Below, in pieces: positions 1,425 to 30,805 of a stretch of DNA of 33,696 nucleotides. Numbering within the stretch: position 1 is the first letter of the stretch; each line of letters begins with the position of its first letter. The notes under the pieces were generated by a model. That model was not told where the DNA came from, did no database searches, and was given only the letters and a program-made list of their open reading frames with translations. The position numbers and the translations under genes were made by a program. This DNA comes from an uncultured virus (IMG/VR IMGVR_UViG_3300042898_001580) (Duplodnaviria; Heunggongvirae; Uroviricota; Caudoviricetes; Crassvirales), in the IMG/VR virus record IMGVR_UViG_3300042898_001580, one strand, 5' to 3'.

Positions 1425-1762
1425 TATACGTAGTAAGTTATTTTGATTGAGCTTGTACCACCTGTAACTTCAATTATTGAAAACTTAGATATTGCTACTG
1501 AACCTACTATTTCTAGTATTTGAGTATTAGCTAATAAATGCCCTACAGTTGTAGTTGCTGTAGTTCCATCTAAAGTGTATCTAAGAGTTACACCTGTTTC
1601 TACAGTAATATGAGCTGCTACAGCTCCTTCAGGTATATCAGGTAAGCTTTTTGCTGTTCCTGTTACTGCTAAAGATTTATATAATGTTGGTACTAGTTGT
1701 TTACCTAGTAATGTGATTAGTGATACTAATCCTTGTGAGTTACCTCCTAGCTGCAATTGCAT
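1424..1762 (-). CDS. Hypothetical virion protein (beta-rich)
   Basis: 112 aa, LRYTLDGTTATTTVG motif, translationally coupled within the structural operon. Confidence 0.5.
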   Translation of the reverse strand: MQLQLGGNSQGLVSLITLLGKQLVPTLYKSLAVTGTAKSLPDIPEGAVAAHITVETGVTLRYTLDGTTATTTVGHLLANTQILEIVGSVAISKFSIIEVTGGTSSIKITYYV

Positions 1763-2316
1763 TCTCCTGTTAGTTTTTTAGCGTGATTAATAATTGCACA
1801 TACTTGTTCTTGCGTTATGCAATTCCATATATCTAATATATGTTCATACGAATCTTCCATATTTGTAGTTACAGTAATATCTTCAGATTCTGTTACAGTT
1901 GTAGTAGTACCAAAACCAAGAGAAGTATCGTAACTATAAATATACAATGCTCCTTGATGGGTAAATCCTTCAAACGCATAAGTAGTATTTGCTAGTATTT
2001 CTTGTAAAAAGTAGTTTGTTATTTCAAATCTTTGGCCTGTACCACTATATGAAAATGTTTCTGTACCTATAGTAATATCTATAGTTACTGCATCATCATT
2101 GTTCTTTGTAAAAATAAAGTTATATGCGTATGTAACTGTAGCGTTAAATGTCTTGTAACAATAAAGTAAAGGAAGGTAACTAGCAACTATTCTCATTGCT
2201 GTAACCCTCTCTAAACATGTTCTACCAATAGACAATGCCTGTGATTGTTTGTATGCTAAATCAGCAAACTTACATTGGATGTCATTGATATGTATATTTT
2301 TACAAGTTGTGGTCAT
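1747..2316 (-). CDS. Hypothetical virion protein with Cys-rich termini
   Basis: 189-aa ORF, TAATG coupling to the upstream fibre gene, ends ECNCS. Confidence 0.55.
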   Translation of the reverse strand: MTTTCKNIHINDIQCKFADLAYKQSQALSIGRTCLERVTAMRIVASYLPLLYCYKTFNATVTYAYNFIFTKNNDDAVTIDITIGTETFSYSGTGQRFEITNYFLQEILANTTYAFEGFTHQGALYIYSYDTSLGFGTTTTVTESEDITVTTNMEDSYEHILDIWNCITQEQVCAIINHAKKLTGECNCS

Positions 2317-8479: not shown

Positions 8480-9457
8480 CTACTTATCTTGTATTTCTTT
8501 TTCAATTCTATTAAGGAAGTTTACATCTTCTTTGCATTTACCTATAATGTCCATGATAGTACCTAGTGGCTCATCATTAACTGTTTTGTAGGTAGTTTTA
8601 GTTGCATAAAGAATGTAACCAACTTCAATAGCTTTATAAATCTTAGTCTTTAGTAAGAAGAAAGGATCTTTATGTACATTAAAGAACTCATCAGGTTTTT
8701 CTGTTGCCAGTTCACCTACATAAGTTTCTAGTGTAGCTAAAGAGGTTGCTTTGTTAAGTTTCTTAAGCGGGTTATGTACAACAATAAAATTACGTAGTTT
8801 ATTTTCTTGACCTACATATTCTGTTGCATATAACTGTATTGCTTTAGTACGTTTATCAAGCAATTCTTTCTTGTTGTCAAATTGACGATTTTCATCAACT
8901 ATGGCAAACTTATAAGTAGGACGATCAAACCTGTCTTCCCAATTTGGTGCAATATACTTTCTGTTTGCATAAGCAATCTTAGCTTTAAGACAATCTTCTA
9001 CACGTGTTAGGTCTAGTTCTATACCATTCTTAGGAATGTCAAGAGTAAAAGCCCTTTGTGAATCACGAGTAACAGGGTCTGTATAAGCTTTCCAAAAGTT
9101 ATTGTTCTTTGCATTTGTAGCTAAATCTAAATTCTTTTCTTTTGAGAAAAACTCTAGTTCAGTCATTTCCTGATTGTATTCAGGTACAAAGTTCTTAGTA
9201 GTAGTATCAAATACTTTTACTAATTGACCTGTTTTACCATCAATAGGTAAATCAAGTTTATACGTTTGATTGTCCATCATAAAACCTTGAGGTAGTTCAG
9301 AAATAGTCTGACCTTCAAACTTCAAGGAATTGATAGCTTTGATTTTAAGCTTCTTAGGCTTAAGATACGGGTGAAGACCATTTGCAACAATCTGTTCAAA
9401 TGACATGCCTTCTGTTTTATCAGCAGGAGCTGATTTTGTTTTTGTTTCTTTTTCCAT
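8480..9457 (-). CDS. Conserved crAss-like protein immediately downstream of MCP
   Basis: 325 aa, NNNFW and LDLTRVED...IAP motifs, synteny. Confidence 0.6.
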   Translation of the reverse strand: MEKETKTKSAPADKTEGMSFEQIVANGLHPYLKPKKLKIKAINSLKFEGQTISELPQGFMMDNQTYKLDLPIDGKTGQLVKVFDTTTKNFVPEYNQEMTELEFFSKEKNLDLATNAKNNNFWKAYTDPVTRDSQRAFTLDIPKNGIELDLTRVEDCLKAKIAYANRKYIAPNWEDRFDRPTYKFAIVDENRQFDNKKELLDKRTKAIQLYATEYVGQENKLRNFIVVHNPLKKLNKATSLATLETYVGELATEKPDEFFNVHKDPFFLLKTKIYKAIEVGYILYATKTTYKTVNDEPLGTIMDIIGKCKEDVNFLNRIEKEIQDK

Positions 9458-9464
9458 AAAAATA

Positions 9465-9505
9465 ATTTTGGGGCTAATATACGAAATTTATACTAGCCCC
9501 AAAAT
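9465..9505 (-). terminator. 12-bp inverted repeat after MCP, overlapping a promoter-like motif
   Basis: ATTTTGGGGCTA (9465-9476) / TAGCCCCAAAAT (9494-9505), followed by a U-rich tract on the minus strand. Confidence 0.6.
9473..9503 (-). promoter_or_regulatory. Bacteroidota sigma70-like promoter (TTTG..TATATTAG)
   Basis: Minus-strand TTTCGTATATTAGC, one mismatch to the -7 consensus TAnnTTTG, with TTTG 18 nt upstream. Confidence 0.5.
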
Positions 9506-11065: not shown

Positions 11066-12205
11066 TTATTTTATTTTTTTGTTTTTTACTGCTTCTGCTA
11101 GTTTGGCATAACCATCATTTATTACCTGTTCCATAGTATCTGTAGAGGTAGTACCAAATGATTTGTTTATGCTTTTCTGGTTGTTATTAGTTATAGCTGC
11201 TTCTAGTTCTTTTATTACATCAGCTTTACCTACATTTTTAAGAACACTTAAATCAGGAATAAAATCTTTTTTGCGAGTGTCATATTTAAATAAACCTATG
11301 GTATGATAGAAACGTAAAAGAGCATCAAACTTAGCTTCATCTTTTTGGCGGGTAGCAAATATTGGATTTACTTTCTGACCATTAGCTTCCACTGTTTGAT
11401 ATTCCTTAGTCCAAGATTCTTTAAGTTTCTTAGATAACTTTATGCCACCAATTTCTTCAGTACTTTCAATAAAGTCTTGTAAGTCTTGTAGTTGCTTTTG
11501 TGCTTGAGCTTGTTGGTATTGGCTTTGTTTAGCTACTTCTTGTTTTAGCTGTGCTTCGTAATTATTTACTACTTCAACTAACTCATCATAGTTAGATTCA
11601 GCTTCTTCCATTAATACACCTGCTTCTTTAGACTTCTTAATTTCCCTGTCTATTTTATCAGGAGAAAAATTAGTTGTATTACGCAAGTATTCTTTTTGTA
11701 TCTTTTCAGCTAACTCTAAATCTGAAGCAATATCATCTTTGTTAATTTGTGAGATAGTCTTTAGAGATTTCATCAAATCTGCTGCATCTTCAACTGGTAC
11801 GCCACTATCAACTAACTCAATAAACTTCTTATTAAGAGGGTTAAGATTATTTTGTATATGAGAGTCTAGTTTTACTTGTGCTTTTCTGTCAGATAAATCT
11901 TCTTGCAGAGAAAGATAACTTTCTATAGTACCATCAAACTCTTCTTCATTAAACTCTAATCCTTCTTTCTCGTAAAGAGCTTTAAGGGTTTTAGAAAGTA
12001 CATTAGTATTTTCTTCTACTTTCTTTGGAGCTTCAGTAGGTACTTCTTCTGAAACTTTTACTATGTCATCAAAAGCAATAAGACCATCATCTGATGTTAC
12101 TTCAGTTTTCTTTGGTTCTTCTTCTGCTGCTGTTTTTTCCTTTTTTACTTCTGGTTCTTTACCAATCTGGTCAAAAGGAATAACTTCTAAATTTTCTATT
12201 TCCAT
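11066..12205 (-). CDS. Acidic coiled-coil protein, probable capsid scaffold/assembly protein
   Basis: 379 aa, E/K/D-rich, directly upstream of MCP as in crAss-like phages. Confidence 0.6.
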   Translation of the reverse strand: MEIENLEVIPFDQIGKEPEVKKEKTAAEEEPKKTEVTSDDGLIAFDDIVKVSEEVPTEAPKKVEENTNVLSKTLKALYEKEGLEFNEEEFDGTIESYLSLQEDLSDRKAQVKLDSHIQNNLNPLNKKFIELVDSGVPVEDAADLMKSLKTISQINKDDIASDLELAEKIQKEYLRNTTNFSPDKIDREIKKSKEAGVLMEEAESNYDELVEVVNNYEAQLKQEVAKQSQYQQAQAQKQLQDLQDFIESTEEIGGIKLSKKLKESWTKEYQTVEANGQKVNPIFATRQKDEAKFDALLRFYHTIGLFKYDTRKKDFIPDLSVLKNVGKADVIKELEAAITNNNQKSINKSFGTTSTDTMEQVINDGYAKLAEAVKNKKIK

Positions 12206-19570: not shown

Positions 19571-19584
19571 GTAAATATACGAAA
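19571..19584 (-). promoter_or_regulatory. Promoter-like motif TTTCGTATATTTAC
   Basis: Near-identical to the motif at 9473-9486; lies between the groES terminator and the next ATG. Confidence 0.5.
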
Positions 19585-20103: not shown

Positions 20104-21669
20104 TTAATTAAAGTTCATTGGGGTTTCTATATATTTTTCTGCTACTACACAAGATGTAGTTAAGAATAGGGCACATACTGATGATGCGTTTTCCAAGGCT
20201 ACTCTTACTACTTTAGTTGGGTCTATTACTCCTGAAACTAATAGATCTTCATATTGCTCTGATTTGGCATTAAACTGTTTGCCTTTCTTTACTTTTTGGA
20301 TTATTGTATCTTCTTCTAGTCCTGCGTTTTGTAGTATTTGTCGTAAAGGTGCTTCTAATGCTTTCTTTATTAAGTCTATACCTGACTGAATGTCTTTATC
20401 TTTTGAAGAAGAGATAGAAGCTATTGCTTTTATAAATGCTGTTCCACCTCCTGGTACTATACCTTCAGCTATTGCAGCTTTTGTAGCACAAAGAGCATCA
20501 TCTATTCTATCAGCTTTTTCTTTTAACTCTGTTTCAGTTGTTGCTCCTACATATAATACAGCTGCTCCTCCTGAAAGTTTTTGTGCTCTTTTGGTAAGTC
20601 TGTCTTGGTCAAACTGTAATTCAGCGTGTTTGGCTTGTTCTTTAATTTGAGATACTCTGATAAGTATGTCTTCTTTCTTGCCTTTGCCATTAATAAGTGT
20701 GGTAGAGTCTTTAAAGATTTTTACATCTGATTGACCTAAAGAAGATAGTTGAGAAGCTTCTAGTGATAATCCTTTATCTTGAGTAATGTATAGACCACCA
20801 GTTATTGTAGCTATATCCTGTAATAGCTCTTTTTTGTGGTCACCATGTGCAGGAGCTTTGATAGCTGCTACTTTGATACCTTTCATTCTATTTACTACAA
20901 GGGTAGAAAGAGCTTCATCTACTAAGTCTTCACAGATAATAATAAGAGCTCTTTGTTCTTTTACACAAGCTTCTAAGTACTTAAGTATTTGAGTAGTAGA
21001 AGTTATTTTCTCGTCTGTAATCAAGATTAAAGCATTTTGATACTCTACTACCATCTTGTTAGGATCAGTAACAAAGTAAGGTGAAATGTACCCTTTATCT
21101 ATCTTTAGTCCTTCTGTAACTTCTATGTATGTTTCAGTAGACCTTGATTCTTCAACTGTAATAAGCCCTTCTTCTCCTACTAGATTTACAGCATCAGCTA
21201 TTAGTTTACCTATAGTAAAGTCATTGTTAGCTGATATAGTAGCTACATTAAGAATAGAATCTGATTGTAATAGTAGTGATTGTGATTTAATAGATTGAAT
21301 AGCTTCTACTGTTGCTAGCTCTATACCTTTCTTTAATTTTACAGGATTTGTGCCTTCAGCTATTAGTCTTAGTCCTTCATTAAGGATTGTTTGTGCTAAT
21401 ACTATAGAAGTTGTAGTACCATCTCCTGAGACTTCCAGTGTTTTATTAGCTATTTCCTGTAAAAGTTGTGCTCCAAGATTTTCATTTGGATCTTCAAGCT
21501 TTATTGAAGAAGCTACACTAACACCATCTTTGGTGATGTGTGGTGCATTGAATTGACGTGAAAGAATTACATTCCTTCCTTGTGGGCCAAGAGTACCTTT
21601 TACAGCATTTGCTAAAATGTTAGCACCTTTCTGGAGGGATCTTGTGTGAAATTCTATTATTTTGCTCAT
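20104..21669 (-). CDS. groEL: Chaperonin GroEL (Cpn60)
   Basis: TLGPQGRNV, ITKDGVSVA, GDGTTT, GYISPYF, RIDDALCATKAA, GIVPGGG, GVIDPTKV; no GGM tail. Confidence 0.97.
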   Translation of the reverse strand: MSKIIEFHTRSLQKGANILANAVKGTLGPQGRNVILSRQFNAPHITKDGVSVASSIKLEDPNENLGAQLLQEIANKTLEVSGDGTTTSIVLAQTILNEGLRLIAEGTNPVKLKKGIELATVEAIQSIKSQSLLLQSDSILNVATISANNDFTIGKLIADAVNLVGEEGLITVEESRSTETYIEVTEGLKIDKGYISPYFVTDPNKMVVEYQNALILITDEKITSTTQILKYLEACVKEQRALIIICEDLVDEALSTLVVNRMKGIKVAAIKAPAHGDHKKELLQDIATITGGLYITQDKGLSLEASQLSSLGQSDVKIFKDSTTLINGKGKKEDILIRVSQIKEQAKHAELQFDQDRLTKRAQKLSGGAAVLYVGATTETELKEKADRIDDALCATKAAIAEGIVPGGGTAFIKAIASISSSKDKDIQSGIDLIKKALEAPLRQILQNAGLEEDTIIQKVKKGKQFNAKSEQYEDLLVSGVIDPTKVVRVALENASSVCALFLTTSCVVAEKYIETPMNFN

Positions 21670-21686
21670 TTTTGAATTGTTTTGAG

Positions 21687-21716
21687 CAAATATAGGTATT
21701 ATTTTTAGATAAACAA
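21687..21716 (-). promoter_or_regulatory. Consensus Bacteroidota housekeeping promoter for groEL
   Basis: Minus strand TTG (21716-21714), 19-nt spacer, TATATTTG (21694-21687): exact match to TTG-N19-TAnnTTTG. Confidence 0.75.
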
Positions 21717-21780
21717 GGAAATTTATACGTTTTTTTTGTAATTTTTCTCTTTATACGGTTAGCTTGCTAACCCGATTGTT

Positions 21781-22066
21781 AAAAAAGCCCCCTTTGGAAA
21801 AAACCATCCACATGACAAGGGGGCAATTCATGTGTGGGGAAGTCATTAAACTTAACTTCCAAAGATATAAATATCTTTAATATAACTATCTGATCCAGTA
21901 TCCTTCCACTACTTATTGGGGGCTATAGTTTATCAATAATAAGACAATATTATATTGGGTAAGAAAATAAACAGAATGTCTAATCTTATTAATTGAGTCC
22001 TTAAGGTCAGATAGCATTACCCTTAAGTCTTATTACCAGGAAAGAAAGAACTACTTCGCTATCATC
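21781..22066 (-). ncRNA. Candidate ~285-nt pseudoknotted non-coding RNA
   Basis: No listed ORF; upstream promoter-like motif; at least 8 helices including crossing pairs; ends in an 8-bp GC-rich stem plus U6. Confidence 0.55.
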
Positions 22067-22068
22067 CT

Positions 22069-22083
22069 GCAATAATACGAAAA
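22069..22083 (-). promoter_or_regulatory. Promoter-like motif TTTTCGTATTATTGC
   Basis: Same family as the motifs at 9473 and 19571; one mismatch to TAnnTTTG. Confidence 0.5.
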
Positions 22084-22416
22084 TTATTTTGATTGGTTGT
22101 ATTTTTTGAAAACTTTTTCTATGGTTTCTACAATCCACTCCACAAAATAAGCTTCATGCTCATCATTTTCAAAGTCTGGTTTAGCTGCAATCTGGTCAAA
22201 TACAATATTCTTTATATGTATTGCTTCATGCGCTACTAAAGAGGCATTAAATTCTTTAGTAGAGAACCATACAACTATACCTCTGTCTGTTTCATGTACA
22301 CAAGCTATATCTGTTAAAGACAATTCTAGGTTATATGCTTTACAAGTTTTTTCAGAAGGTATTCCTATATGTACATATAACACTCTCTGGTATATGGGTA
22401 TGATTATTTTTTTCAT
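22084..22416 (-). CDS. Small zincin-like metallopeptidase
   Basis: Likely start MKKIII at 22416; HEAIH (HExxH) with downstream EHEAY as candidate third ligand. Confidence 0.65.
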   Translation of the reverse strand: MKKIIIPIYQRVLYVHIGIPSEKTCKAYNLELSLTDIACVHETDRGIVVWFSTKEFNASLVAHEAIHIKNIVFDQIAAKPDFENDEHEAYFVEWIVETIEKVFKKYNQSK

Positions 22417-22479
22417 CCTGCTTATTATTTTATAGCAATTATACTTGCAAGGTACAAAAAAGTTACTAAAATAAAAAAA

Positions 22480-22746
22480 CATACCCCCCATGTTTATATA
22501 GGGTATTTGATACCCCGACTACCCACTTTAAGTAGTTGATTTATAGAAGGATACCCCCTTTTCTATAATAAAAATAGTGTGTATCCCCTGCGTTAGTATC
22601 CATAATAAAAATCATGGGTATGCTCTAAAGGAGTAACCAAAAAATTTTTAGAAATATTTTTTTAAAACTGAATGTGTGTACCCCGTTAGTAACCAGCCCC
22701 AAACAACACCCCCTCATATGGTCAGGTGGGTAAAGTACCTACCCTG
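22480..22746. repeat. TACCC-motif cluster at the divergent strand switch
   Basis: About 8-9 TACCC/GGGTA copies; direct repeat GTGTGTA(T)CCCC(TGC)GTTAGTA at 22577-22598 and 22674-22691; hairpin at 22723-22746. Confidence 0.6.
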
Positions 22747-22769
22747 TTTCACATTATACATCCGCAAAA

Positions 22770-23069
22770 ATGGCGAAAATTACAGTAGTGGTAGACTCAA
22801 CCACTCAAATCAACAACAGTGAGTCAAAAGACCTTGGTTGTTACAAACACAAGCTGCTACTTTCACGCAAGGTGACAGCTGATGGTGTAACTACCACCAA
22901 ACGTGAGACCTATACACTAATCACAGAGGACAGTGAGATAGGTGAACTAACTGAGGGTGTGAGGTATTGGAGCTTCGATTCTACCAAGTGGAAACCTGAG
23001 CCACGTACATTCACAGATGAGGCAACAGGTGAGACTATCACCTACAAGCGCCTTGTACCACGTGATTAA
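22770..23069 (+). CDS. Hypothetical protein, first gene of the plus-strand arm
   Basis: 99 aa, higher GC than its neighbours, has its own terminator. Confidence 0.7.
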   Translation: MAKITVVVDSTTQINNSESKDLGCYKHKLLLSRKVTADGVTTTKRETYTLITEDSEIGELTEGVRYWSFDSTKWKPEPRTFTDEATGETITYKRLVPRD

Positions 23070-23070
23070 T

Positions 23071-23100
23071 AGGAGCACCTTCGGGTGCTTCTTTCACTTT
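23071..23100 (+). terminator. Intrinsic terminator (cUUCGg loop)
   Basis: AGGAGCACC-TTCG-GGTGCTTCT followed by a T-rich tail. Confidence 0.8.
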
Positions 23101-23142
23101 ATATATTAGTAATGCTTACTACACTGCTTACTAAGCACTATT

Positions 23143-23271
23143 ATACTACAGTTTTCTTTGGCTGTTTGCCTTAAAACTCAATGGACATCAGGCTAATAGA
23201 TATAATCTATGATGATTTAATTGTCATAGGATTACTCTATAAGATAACCAACATCCTGAAAACTGTAGTAT
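23143..23271 (+). ncRNA. Stem-enclosed multibranch RNA element
   Basis: Perfect 14-bp closing stem ATACTACAGTTTTC/GAAAACTGTAGTAT with internal hairpins. Confidence 0.45.
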
Positions 23272-23326
23272 TTTACCCTGTTTATCTTATAATATTATAG
23301 CAATAACATTCAAACACATACACAAA

Positions 23327-23512
23327 ATGGAATTAGTTATATCACCTAATAAAATGAAATCATTACAAAATTCTGCCATTAAAAATGCTGAATCAAATGA
23401 TTATGTTTTCAACAGGTCTAAAGAAATGACTGAATTGCTTCAAACATTAGAGGCAATGCAAGTTCGTAAGATTGAAATAGACTTATCACCTGATAGTGAT
23501 AGTCTTCTGTAA
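23327..23512 (+). CDS. Hypothetical protein
   Basis: 61 aa, AC-rich leader without SD sequence. Confidence 0.6.
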   Translation: MELVISPNKMKSLQNSAIKNAESNDYVFNRSKEMTELLQTLEAMQVRKIEIDLSPDSDSLL

Positions 23513-23515
23513 TAT

Positions 23516-23540
23516 AAGAGCCTGTAACAAGGCTCTTTTA
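23516..23540 (+). terminator. Intrinsic terminator
   Basis: AAGAGCCT-GTAACA-AGGCTCTT-TT. Confidence 0.65.
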
Positions 23541-23693
23541 ACTCTTTGAGTTCACCTGAGATTGATGTAATGTCAGTTTTGGGTGAACTTTCTTTAATTT
23601 ATGATTCAAATTCCGTAGCAATAGTTTAAAGTTTTACTGTTGTAAATACGTCTGAGAAGAAACTTTTATTACTAACCTTTTAATCTTATTCTT

Positions 23694-23819
23694 ATGGTTA
23701 TTTGTTTTCACGCAGGATTATATCCTGTAGTTAATACTTCAACTAACGAAATAGTTGATGTATGTGCCACTTTAAAAGAGGCAAAAACTCTTTATCCTTC
23801 TGCCACAGTGCAGTTGTAA
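23694..23819 (+). CDS. Small hypothetical protein (41 aa), not in ORF track
   Basis: MVICFHAGLYPVVNTSTNEIVDVCATLKEAKTLYPSATVQL*. Confidence 0.5.
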   Translation: MVICFHAGLYPVVNTSTNEIVDVCATLKEAKTLYPSATVQL

Positions 23820-23946
23820 AATACTAGTAGTTCTTTCTGCACAAGGACTACCTATAACTCTTTGGGGGTGCAGATAACCCAATGTTTTCCTCTTATGGGT
23901 AGGAATGTGCTGACATAAGATTAGCATAAAACCCATTATTTATACT

Positions 23947-24168
23947 ATGATACTATTCAATACATTGAAGAAAGCTTCACACTATGTTAAATATAAAAAC
24001 AGTGTAGTAGCTAAAGACCCTTATTATAAAATCTATGATGAGCATTACAAATATTTCTTTATATCCAAAGATTTAGTTATTGAATCATTTGGTTGGAGAT
24101 GTGGTTGTGGTTGTGGTCAAAATTCTAATGATAATATAGTCATTGGAAGAATAAAAGCAGGGTTTTAA
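23947..24168 (+). CDS. Hypothetical protein with CGCGC motif
   Basis: 73 aa; WRCGCGCG. Confidence 0.55.
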   Translation: MILFNTLKKASHYVKYKNSVVAKDPYYKIYDEHYKYFFISKDLVIESFGWRCGCGCGQNSNDNIVIGRIKAGF

Positions 24169-24295
24169 TACTGTTTATCAGACATAGCAGTGTACAAGTC
24201 TGAGGTAATATAAATTAAATTGAAACATTTAATCACTATAGCCAAGTTGGTAACTTAACAACCATATTATTTTATTAACTCAAACAAACAGAAAC

Positions 24296-24601
24296 GTGAA
24301 ACAAGAATTAACAAAATTAGAAGAGTTGCTTAGAGATTTAGGCAATCTTTATAAGTGGGATATGGTTATTACAGCAAGTGTTCTTGTTCAAAATATGGCA
24401 TTTAATGCTGATAAATTTGAACATAAAGACTTTCTTCCTTATTTATCTATTCTTGAGAAGATGAAGAACTATAATGAATCAAACCATATACTTCAATGGG
24501 CTTATGATGAAGCCTCAATGATTGTAGAAGCTCATTTTTATTCTCTTTATTTAGATGAATCTGACCTTAATGCTCTTGAGAATCAATCAACAGAGCAATA
24601 A
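24296..24601 (+). CDS. Hypothetical protein
   Basis: 101 aa, GTG start after an AAAC-rich leader. Confidence 0.6.
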   Translation: MKQELTKLEELLRDLGNLYKWDMVITASVLVQNMAFNADKFEHKDFLPYLSILEKMKNYNESNHILQWAYDEASMIVEAHFYSLYLDESDLNALENQSTEQ

Positions 24602-24709
24602 TCTAGCTAATGTATATGGAAAGTCTGTTATATAACATACATTAGAAACACTACCTTTGGAGAATCTAAAGGTTACAGACCGTTAAGCATAAATGGCGAA
24701 CATTAATGT

Positions 24710-24802
24710 ATAACTATAGTAAGATAATTAGCTCAGTTGGTTAGAGCCGTGGTTTACCACAAGGTCATAGGTTCAAGTCCTGTATTATCTTATTATAGTT
24801 AT
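24710..24802 (+). ncRNA. tRNA-like element without an anticodon loop, with acceptor stem extended to 19 bp
   Basis: TAGCTCAGTTGGTTAGAGC D-arm, AGGTC variable loop, ATAGG-TTCAAGT-CCTGT T-arm; anticodon arm reduced to GTGG-TTTA-CCAC; no CCA. Confidence 0.7.
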
Positions 24803-24814
24803 TTTTATTAACAT

Positions 24815-24890
24815 TAAACTACTATATTATAGACGAAGGTTAATCCAATGAGATTAATAAATAGGATATAAGGTATAATATAGTAGTTTA
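24815..24890 (+). ncRNA. Stem-enclosed RNA element
   Basis: Perfect 17-bp inverted repeat TAAACTACTATATTATA/TATAATATAGTAGTTTA with inner hairpin TTAATC/GATTAA. Confidence 0.45.
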
Positions 24891-30594: not shown

Positions 30595-30604
30595 TATTAT
30601 TATT

Positions 30605-30805
30605 ATGGATAAACTACAGCGAGAAAAAAGAAATAGCAAGCGCATATTAAGTGCGATGTTTTACGATAGGTTTGTCAGGTTTAACTTTGATGATGCTCCT
30701 ATAGATTGGGAATGGCACAGAAAGTGGACTAACAAAGTAAACACGAGAAAAAGAGTATTTCCTAAAAAATACATTACTAATACTGATGTATGTAATATAG
30801 ATTGA
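30605..30805 (+). CDS. Hypothetical basic protein
   Basis: 66-aa ORF abutting the kinase gene. Confidence 0.5.
   Translation: MDKLQREKRNSKRILSAMFYDRFVRFNFDDAPIDWEWHRKWTNKVNTRKRVFPKKYITNTDVCNID

Follow-up and report, generated by a model that had tools for sequence, protein, structure and literature searches.

Organization of the ORF110–groEL locus

The stretch of DNA analyzed here (the window, 33,696 nucleotides (nt), IMG/VR record IMGVR_UViG_3300042898_001580) was assigned to a crAss-like phage by its matches to the Crass_capsid major capsid protein, the large terminase, Cpn60 and Cpn10. Its genes run on the minus strand from 22416 down to 128 and on the plus strand from 22770 onward, and a gap of 414 nt (21670-22083) separates open reading frame (ORF) 110, the first gene of the minus-strand block, from groEL. 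The interval under study, 21781-22066, lies within this gap. We read it, with moderate confidence, as a single-copy, non-coding, exchangeable cassette, the 3′ core of which would be an intrinsic terminator closed by a pseudoknot, the whole serving as a transcribed trailer or insulator.

The features of the locus are collected in Table 1. The DNA runs that contain the interval (20 runs from 13 studies, 3 of the runs possibly being the source of the window) are labeled as lake-water, aquatic or sediment metagenomes, and the source lineage is a freshwater crAss-like phage. A search with GroEL gave seven IMG/VR loci with 92-99% amino acid (aa) identity, six of which cover the region upstream of groEL; these relatives are called L001 to L006 and the window W.

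Table 1. Features between ORF110 and groEL, in window coordinates, from upstream to downstream on the minus strand.
Feature	Coordinates	Strand	Basis or remark
ORF110, small protein with HEAIH motif	22084..22416	-	ORF list, start set by relatives
Conserved box TTTTCGTATTATTGCA	22068..22083	-	Directly after the ORF110 stop codon
5′ insert, 133 nt, closed by stem 21935-21945/22027-22037	21934..22066	-	Only in W, L004 and L005
Second box copy ATTGTCTTATTATTG	21934..21948	-	15-nt direct repeat of 22070-22084, 13/15 identical
Shared module	21740..21933	-	Alignments and BLAST, ~70% identity with L001 and L003
Hairpin 1, GGAAGU/ACUUCC, 6 base pairs (bp)	21838..21860	-	Kept in W, L003 and L001
H-type pseudoknot	21787..21834	-	Stems S1 and S2; loops of 3, 1 and 14 nt
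U6 run	21781..21786	-	Directly after S2; UUUUUU in W
Hairpin 3, GGUUAG-CAAG-CUAACC	21757..21772	-	Kept in relatives
Endonuclease insertion site or putative scar	21717..21750	-	A-rich, between CGTATAAA copies (21750-21757, 21722-21729)
groEL promoter, TTG-N19-TATATTTG	21687..21716	-	Sequence reading, -7 box scan
groEL, 521 aa	20104..21669	-	Cpn60_TCP1, E 2.1e-63

Coding capacity, database matches and overall fold

All six frames of the gap are rich in stops of all three kinds, and recoding (TAG=Q, table 4) opens no frame, in agreement with a preliminary description of this DNA that had called the interval non-coding. Only one longer frame is open across the conserved part; it lies in different frames in W and L003 and comes to 5 codons in L001. 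A pseudogene remnant was considered and rejected, the six-frame tblastn matches only mirroring the nucleotide homology, in frames of both strands.

The same description had drawn the interval as a stand-alone structured RNA of ~285 nt with several pseudoknots, belonging to no known RNA family. As to the family, Rfam 15 gave no match for the interval: at gathering score the whole window yielded two tRNAs elsewhere, at E<=10 the best hit over 21600-22200 was a eukaryotic internal ribosome entry site (22.6 bits, with a cut-off of 50), and five related loci and the alternative cassette described below were without match. No description of the element was found in Rfam 15 or in the literature searched.

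As to the fold, the six pairings listed are present over their full length (9/9, 7/7, 9/9, 6/6, 7/7 and 8/8), and the three local hairpins and the U6 run (21781-21786) exist where they had been placed, but the helix sizes are those that chance provides. When perfect helices, with G-U pairs allowed, were counted in the 303-nt RNA and in 200 dinucleotide shuffles of it, 68 helices of at least 7 bp were found versus 59.3 ± 7.9 in the shuffles (32 of the 200 reached this number), 29 of at least 8 bp versus 25.9 (55/200) and 10 of at least 9 bp versus 10.3 (114/200). The z-score of the minimum free energy (MFE) was -1.50 for these 303 nt (21781-22083, minus strand) and -0.85 for the 286 nt of 21781-22066, a stability that is not unusual. 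With such helix counts and MFE values, the sequence alone gives no support for a ~285-nt multi-pseudoknot RNA as a whole; support for the fold comes only from relatives, and only for the 3′ part. We take this as a caution: a multi-pseudoknot fold drawn in AU-rich phage DNA may convince the eye and still, as here, be for the most part at chance level. All in all, what had been observed was partly confirmed and its interpretation partly supported.

A conserved pseudoknot and U-run in the 3′ module

L001 and L003 carry only the 3′ ~190 nt of the element, at ~70% identity to W, in L003 followed by a 41%-identical DUF559 gene and in L001 without an endonuclease. Across these three types, four helices of the shared module (hairpin 1, S1, S2 and hairpin 3) keep 27 of 27 pairs in each. 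In L003, 8 pairs are altered on both sides and 2 on one side with respect to W; in L001 the corresponding numbers are 11 and 1, and no pair is broken in either.

Within the pseudoknot, S1 pairs CACAUGA (21828-21834) with UCAUGUG (21809-21815) over 7 bp, and S2 pairs GCCCCCUU (21817-21824) with AAGGGGGC (21787-21794) over 8 bp, 6 of which are G-C. S1 reads UUUAAGG/CCUUAAA in both L001 and L003, with both sides altered in 5 of the 7 pairs, and the changes in S2 run from C-G to A-U (both sides) and from G-C to G-U (one side), none of them breaking a pair. No nucleotide belongs to both stems, and with loops of 3-4, 1 and 13-14 nt it should be sterically possible for the two to form together. The knot stands at a constant offset from the invariant anchor TGACTTC in 4/4 sequences, and composition shuffles yielded such a knot in 40/5000 cases for W and 13/5000 for L003. 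A U-run follows in all three types, as UUUUU after S2 plus one C in L003 and as UUUUCUU in L001. The outer pair of hairpin 1, a G-C in W, is replaced by G-U in L003 and by A-U in L001, while hairpin 3 becomes GUUUUG/CAAAAC in L003, with 2 pairs altered on both sides, and a hairpin of a U-run with an A-run, of ambiguous register, in L001.

On the MAFFT alignment, hairpin 1 and S1 together had 92.3% paired cells versus 81.5 ± 3.0% after shuffling, a value that 0 of 500 shuffles reached, and only 34.6-59.6% when the partners were slid against each other; two pairs of S1 appear broken there because the 3′ arm is shifted by one column. The outer pairs of hairpin 1 and S2 that are G-U in L003 or L001 would be A-C mismatches on the plus strand, and a U-run after S2 exists only on the minus strand, which together point to the minus strand as the RNA strand. 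The 3′ 153 nt had an MFE z-score of -2.39 in W and -2.19 in L003.

Hence the H-type pseudoknot at the 3′ end and the hairpin at 21838-21860 that had been described from W are both kept in diverged relatives through compensatory changes, the former in both of its crossing stems. The hairpin proposed at 21861-21878 fared otherwise: it is not kept in L001 or L003, and its counterpart in L003 forms a helix of 12 bp with the 5′ leader instead. Judged from these alignments, the 3′ third of the interval is a real, conserved and unusual structure of RNA type. The 5′ half of the module also holds invariant single stretches (UGGAUCAG, GGAAG and a C-run), with no consistent helix across the aligned W, L001 and L003.

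Two known elements were considered for the module and rejected. For an HDV-like (hepatitis delta virus-like) ribozyme, the module lacks a P3 hairpin between the 5′ arm of S2 and the 3′ arm of S1, and it had no Rfam match. Set against the consensus of the CIRCE operator, hairpin 3 of W resembles the outer half, and this sequence is not kept in L001 and L003.

The 5′ insert and the exchange of cassettes

The 5′ insert found in W, L004 and L005 holds the helices 21937-45/22027-35, 22000-06/22021-27 and 21960-88 as well as the 5′ arms of both long-range crossings of the proposed fold. L001 and L003 lack it, and in L002 and L006 it has been exchanged entirely for other sequence. The MFE z-score of the insert, -0.10, denotes a stability at shuffle level; the 5′ helices and the long-range crossings were accordingly not borne out. 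Its copies differ at five positions, three of them at the junction 22064-22066 and the internal two at 21952 (in a loop) and 21970 (G-U to G-C), and because the insert is near-invariant where present, covariation is uninformative there. The crossings 22007-15/21885-93 and 22017-22/21957-62 and the alternative pairing of the GAUAGC end are of chance size. Since a second copy of the box, including TATTATTG, stands before the shared module, the 133-nt part is a lineage-specific insert between direct repeats. A transposon-like insert was rejected, no terminal inverted repeats being found at its ends, and a 21-nt similarity at 30600-30620 belongs to the start of a reading frame and was taken as chance.

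In W the full element lies between ORF110 and groEL without an endonuclease. L004 and L005 have the same element, with 5 differences from the box to hairpin 3 and a DUF559 gene directly after it, while their ORF110 is only 78-88% identical to that of W at the nt level and an extra opposite-strand ORF lies upstream. L002 and L006 carry, at the same place and behind the same box, an unrelated non-coding cassette of ~320 nt (2652-2975 in L002, 2651-2975 in L006). These two cassettes are 97% identical, with an MFE z-score of -0.18 and 10 differences, none of them compensatory, and the ORF110 proteins next to them are 94% and 55% identical to that of W. Conversely, L001 and L006 are 99.7% identical in ORF110 at the nt level, yet their cassettes differ.

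The box is identical or nearly so in L002, L004, L005 and L006 and reads TAATATTGCA in L003 and TATAATTGCA in L001. All cassettes start right after it, unrelated ones diverging 0-3 nt downstream; it thus forms the left border of 5 cassette types, and it has been carried along in L005 and L006. In L005 a 118-aa opposite-strand ORF (1525-1881, minus strand), for which neither Pfam nor PHROG gave a family, is inserted in the last codons of the ORF110 homologue and is followed by a duplicated remnant of the C-terminal codons of ORF110 plus the box. The ORF110–groEL locus is hyperplastic, unrelated cassettes and a DUF559 gene being exchanged behind one conserved box.

Beyond these relatives the element was not encountered. 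Among those of the 18 distant relatives of ORF110 that were compared by BLASTN none has similarity to it, and the 8 distant DUF559 loci L122-L129, compared by six-frame tblastn only, gave no match. In IMG/VR, patterns of the 5′ hairpin and of the knot were each confined to the two contigs that underlie L004 and L005, and a degenerate pattern of the module to the four contigs already known. Neither the module pattern nor a relative of ORF110 was found in the GTDB genomes; a BLASTN of the gap against 50,697 phage records had no match, and its 4-kb neighborhood matched only groEL genes. When metagenomes were scanned with residues 1-150 of GroEL, 80 loci were kept, all 49-58% identical and none a close relative, which presumably are cellular groEL genes. 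By BLAST and knot scan, module and knot are single-copy in all sequences compared.

A candidate terminator between ORF110 and groEL

No terminator lies between ORF110 and the cassette, so transcripts of ORF110, presumably an early or middle gene, must run into it. At its far end, the GC-rich GCCCCCUU/AAGGGGGC stem directly before U6, conserved in L001 and L003, is the signature of a terminator, and the hairpin, the pseudoknot and the U-run of the 3′ module most likely stop transcription. In the mechanism that we infer, RNA polymerase would arrive from ORF110, and possibly also start at the TATTATTG box after the ORF110 stop codon, and transcribe the cassette. S1 would fold first and expose a C-run in its loop; the G-run would then pair with this C-run, so that the loop of 22 nt is packed into a knot immediately ahead of the U-run, and the transcript would be released ahead of the host-type promoter of groEL or, in sister phages, ahead of the endonuclease gene. 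The 5′ 133 nt would be carried as trailer sequence bounded by the duplicated box.

Like an intrinsic (Rho-independent) terminator, the site has an 8-bp stem with 6 G-C pairs and U6 directly after it, a gene upstream and a promoter downstream, and this stem has been kept through compensatory change. Unlike one, it has a loop of 22 nt instead of 3-8 nt, part of which pairs upstream into an H-type knot, and it is a single-copy element in two genomes and not a recurring signal. A simple terminator scan misses the site because of this loop, which becomes compact only if the S1 knot forms. If the 3′ module works as proposed, it would represent an intrinsic terminator with a long loop closed by a pseudoknot, a design missed by standard finders. 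When knots with a T-run after them were sought, the 33.7-kb window had 1 site and 20 shuffles had 1 site in total; the 96,431-nt sister genome G001 also had 1 site, the homologous one, with no second copy of the module.

Several points weigh against the terminator reading. The S2 stem encloses 22 nt and so falls outside the usual definition of a terminator, with a loop of ~3-8 nt, unless the knot forms, and the MFE z-score of the module is 0.01 in L001. As L001 equals L003 in S1 and S2, the comparison there comprises two independent types, and the covariation stems from few events. A terminator does not explain the conserved 5′ half of the module with its single-stranded UGGAUCAG, and a generic one should recur, yet the site is unique in two genomes, a hint of a more specific role. 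No recognizable terminator-like site was found by the terminator scan in the cassette of L002 and L006, so a terminator is not indispensable at this spot. Finally, the sequencing runs listed as holding the interval are DNA only, with no RNA run among them.

The conserved box as a putative promoter

The -7 element of Bacteroidota promoters has the consensus TAnnTTTG. TATTATTG (22070-22077) in the conserved box agrees with it at 7 of 8 positions, with an A at the most conserved T, and reading the sequence upstream revealed no -33 TTTG element; with the -7 part only, transcription might start independently at the box. Of the 19 TATWWTTG sites counted in the window, 6 are intergenic, a mild enrichment over the 2.6 expected by area; such boxes also precede ORF110, groEL and the gene that begins at 12205. 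A recurring promoter was rejected, since the total counts of the 16-nt box, TANNTTTGC, TATTATTG and TTTCGTATWT (one mismatch) are at chance level and the 16-nt box has no second occurrence in the window.

The interval is indeed bracketed on the minus strand, as first described, by a conserved promoter-like box on one side and the GC stem with U6 on the other, and groEL has its own promoter, separate from the box, in a region that is conserved at 95-100% identity across the six relatives. The corresponding arrangement, TTTG-N20-TAnnTTTG, precedes g108 and g110 of phi14:2, and these two are named among the middle promoters used by the host RNA polymerase (bioRxiv 10.1101/2020.03.07.982082).

Were the box an active promoter and the knot with U6 its terminator, the cassette would specify a stand-alone small RNA acting in trans, of ~285 nt in W and ~170-185 nt in the L001/L003 types, which we regard as a tentative possibility. 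Such an RNA could act through the invariant single-stranded UGGAUCAG, and L002 and L006 would make a different RNA from the same promoter. This would fit the divergence of the cassettes about where a start site would lie, the second box copy ahead of the shared module in W, the TATWWTTG boxes before ORF110, groEL and the gene at 12205, and the joint travel of cassette and box. It would also fit the fact that a genome packed so tightly has retained 200-330 nt without coding function, given that a gap of more than 300 nt after the ORF110 homologue occurs in 0 of the 18 distant relatives, and the long non-coding RNAs reported for phi14:2 (bioRxiv 10.1101/2020.03.07.982082). However, the box has neither the conserved T nor a -33 TTTG, whereas the mapped middle promoters of phi14:2 and the groEL promoter have both elements, and it does not recur in the window. 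The putative seed UGGAUCAG has no complement in the window outside the element, the element is dispensable, being replaced in L002 and L006, and constraint over the whole length is contradicted by the 5′ 133 nt, absent from L001 and L003 and with a z-score of -0.10. The lack of RNA runs among those holding the interval counts against a discrete RNA as well.

A broader version, which we consider rather unlikely, holds that sister phages either express alternative, unrelated small RNAs from one conserved box that heads the chaperonin/structural gene block or use a knot-dependent conditional terminator that gates read-through into groEL-groES. The RNA made here would then, with the same reserve, be one of 170-290 nt with a knot-stabilized 3′ end and the invariant UGGAUCAG single-stranded. 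If alternative small RNAs are indeed made, the locus would be an exchangeable slot for an RNA "accessory gene", for example in host takeover or anti-defence.

The DUF559 endonuclease and the low-divergence tract

Exactly at the position equivalent to 21717..21750, L004 and L005 have a 233-aa DUF559 + ExoX-like_C gene. Like L003, L004 and L005, assembled DNA contigs of X5, X10 and X11, three of the four other runs compared (the fourth being X20), carry a DUF559 gene, with 685, 707 and 714 extra letters, respectively, at this joint; W, L001, L002 and L006 have no such gene. The A-rich stretch of W aligns to the first codons of the endonuclease gene and would be the scar left by its deletion.

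Differing letters between W and these contigs numbered 6/333 in the cassette versus 31/308 on the groEL side for X11. For X5 they numbered 6/378 in the cassette, 17/327 on the groEL side and 14/368 on the ORF110 side, and for X10 9/358, 28/273 and 37/345 in the same order; X20 had 19/403 over 21784-22186, part of ORF110 included. This low divergence is sharp, one-sided and confined to the cassette, which suggests a recent spread with the endonuclease and not a constraint on a 285-nt fold, and homing would be its cause.

The interval might then have no function at the RNA level and be DNA hitch-hiking with the DUF559 endonuclease (as co-conversion tract, mobile unit or target) or the remnant of a decayed gene, with hairpins that are incidental or act at the DNA level. 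The high-identity tract does begin at the box and end precisely where the endonuclease gene is inserted, element and endonuclease occur together in L004, L005, X5, X10 and X11, and W has the apparent deletion scar; furthermore, the W cassette starts with GCAGGATGA, which copies the context of the ORF110 start codon and opens a frame of 4 codons, and the 5′ insert does not exceed random sequence in stability. Recent transfer nevertheless fails for the comparison at 70% identity, in which 8-11 pairs are altered on both sides and none is broken, and L001 carries the module without the endonuclease. The G-U pairs and the U-run point to one transcribed strand, and the six-frame comparison gave no protein-level remnant. 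We consider this explanation unlikely.

A regulated attenuator, in which temperature, or a protein or RNA binding the S1 loop or one of two alternative C-runs, would set read-through of a conditional knot-dependent terminator into the chaperonin or endonuclease genes, appears very unlikely: the site is unique in two genomes and directly upstream of groEL-groES, the G-run has two conserved potential partners (the C-run 21913-21919, used by the MFE fold, and that of the S1 loop) and GGAAG occurs twice for one CUUCC, but groEL has a conserved promoter of its own beyond the terminator, the distal pairings comprise few pairs and are kept only in part, and Rfam gave no match to a riboswitch or leader family.

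Comparison with known systems

In T-even phages, free-standing homing endonucleases are encoded at the seg and mob loci and belong to the GIY-YIG or HNH families. The present locus resembles these in that conserved genes enclose an endonuclease gene, a terminator-like hairpin stands immediately before this gene, close relatives differ in whether they have it, and a tract of very low divergence lies alongside. It differs in that the enzyme is of the DUF559 + ExoX-like_C type, is absent from the window itself and is a putative homing enzyme.

H-type pseudoknots are known from the T4 gene 32 leader and from the preQ1-I and fluoride riboswitches. Two short crossing stems with plausible loops (3, 1 and 14 nt) are common to these and to the knot described here; the latter has no Rfam match and is at the 3′ end, fused to a U-run, unlike the phage-leader and riboswitch knots, which lie at a ribosome-binding site or in an aptamer.

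The exchange of cassettes recalls the PeSL cassettes of T4-like phages, in which short conserved motifs, promoter-like and terminator-like, border unrelated sequences that close relatives have swapped, gained or lost in a hyperplastic region (PMC4122927). Similarly, each cassette here has the box TAnnATTGCA as its left border, and two copies of the box enclose the 133-nt insert. Compared with the PeSL units, the order of phages and the motif are different, one locus is concerned, the swapped units are largely non-coding, and the box, a putative promoter, is unique in the window instead of repeated many times. The locus extends the idea of motif-bounded modular shuffling beyond T4-like phages.

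For phi14:2, the preprint reports highly transcribed intergenic long non-coding RNAs, with no function assigned, at the g004-g006 junctions (bioRxiv 10.1101/2020.03.07.982082). These are likewise intergenic regions in a crAss-like phage of a Bacteroidota host, and in phi14:2, too, groEL lies just inside the minus-strand block beside the divergent region. Unlike the cassette, those RNAs lie elsewhere than at groEL, and no non-coding gap precedes the groEL of phi14:2.

Neighboring genes and further features of the window

The start of ORF110, at 22491 in the ORF list, was moved to 22416 on the basis of relatives beginning MKKIIIPIYQ. The protein is a member of phrog_1365 (E 7.3e-16), which is without assigned function, and the Pfam search matched no family; an HE(A/V)IH motif of the HExxH type is invariant in the protein alignment, from which ORF110 may be a metallopeptidase-like small protein. 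Among the 18 distant relatives, none has a gap of more than 300 nt after it.

The divergent region 22492-22770 contains a tandem pair of 37-nt repeats (22562-22635, 70% identical), and the minimum of the cumulative GC skew of the window falls at ~22-24 kb, which gives this region an origin-like look. A replication origin in the interval was rejected because GC-skew minimum and tandem pair, at 22.5-24 kb, are outside it. Upstream of ORF110, a stretch conserved in L001 (1989-2331), L006 (1989-2228) and L002 (2000-2230) has an implausible frame of 76-79 aa (...MRGCCLGLE...) and may be a further conserved part of the divergent zone that is non-coding.

A GC-rich island at 22675-23124 (0.42-0.47 versus ~0.30 GC) underlies a 99-aa plus-strand ORF that has no Pfam or PHROG family. 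The plus strand is ORF-poor from 22.5 to 24.7 kb, and Rfam found nothing over 22450-24850 except a tRNA; by analogy, this stretch might parallel the early long non-coding RNAs of phi14:2. The tRNA-like gene at 24721-24792 (plus strand) scored 48.7 bits with the Rfam tRNA model and was called "tRNA-???" with a two-base anticodon by ARAGORN, its anticodon arm GUGG-UUUA-CCAC having a 4-nt loop.

CGTATA is over-represented in the window, with 15 sites versus 6.2 expected, a number reached by 0 of 100 shuffles. These sites include 9477-9486, 19575-19584, 21722-21729 and 21750-21757, all on the minus strand. TTTCGTATAT closely precedes the genes that start at 9457 and 19567, in the former case within a GC hairpin, and CGTATA/TTTCGTATAT may be a regulatory motif of the phage.

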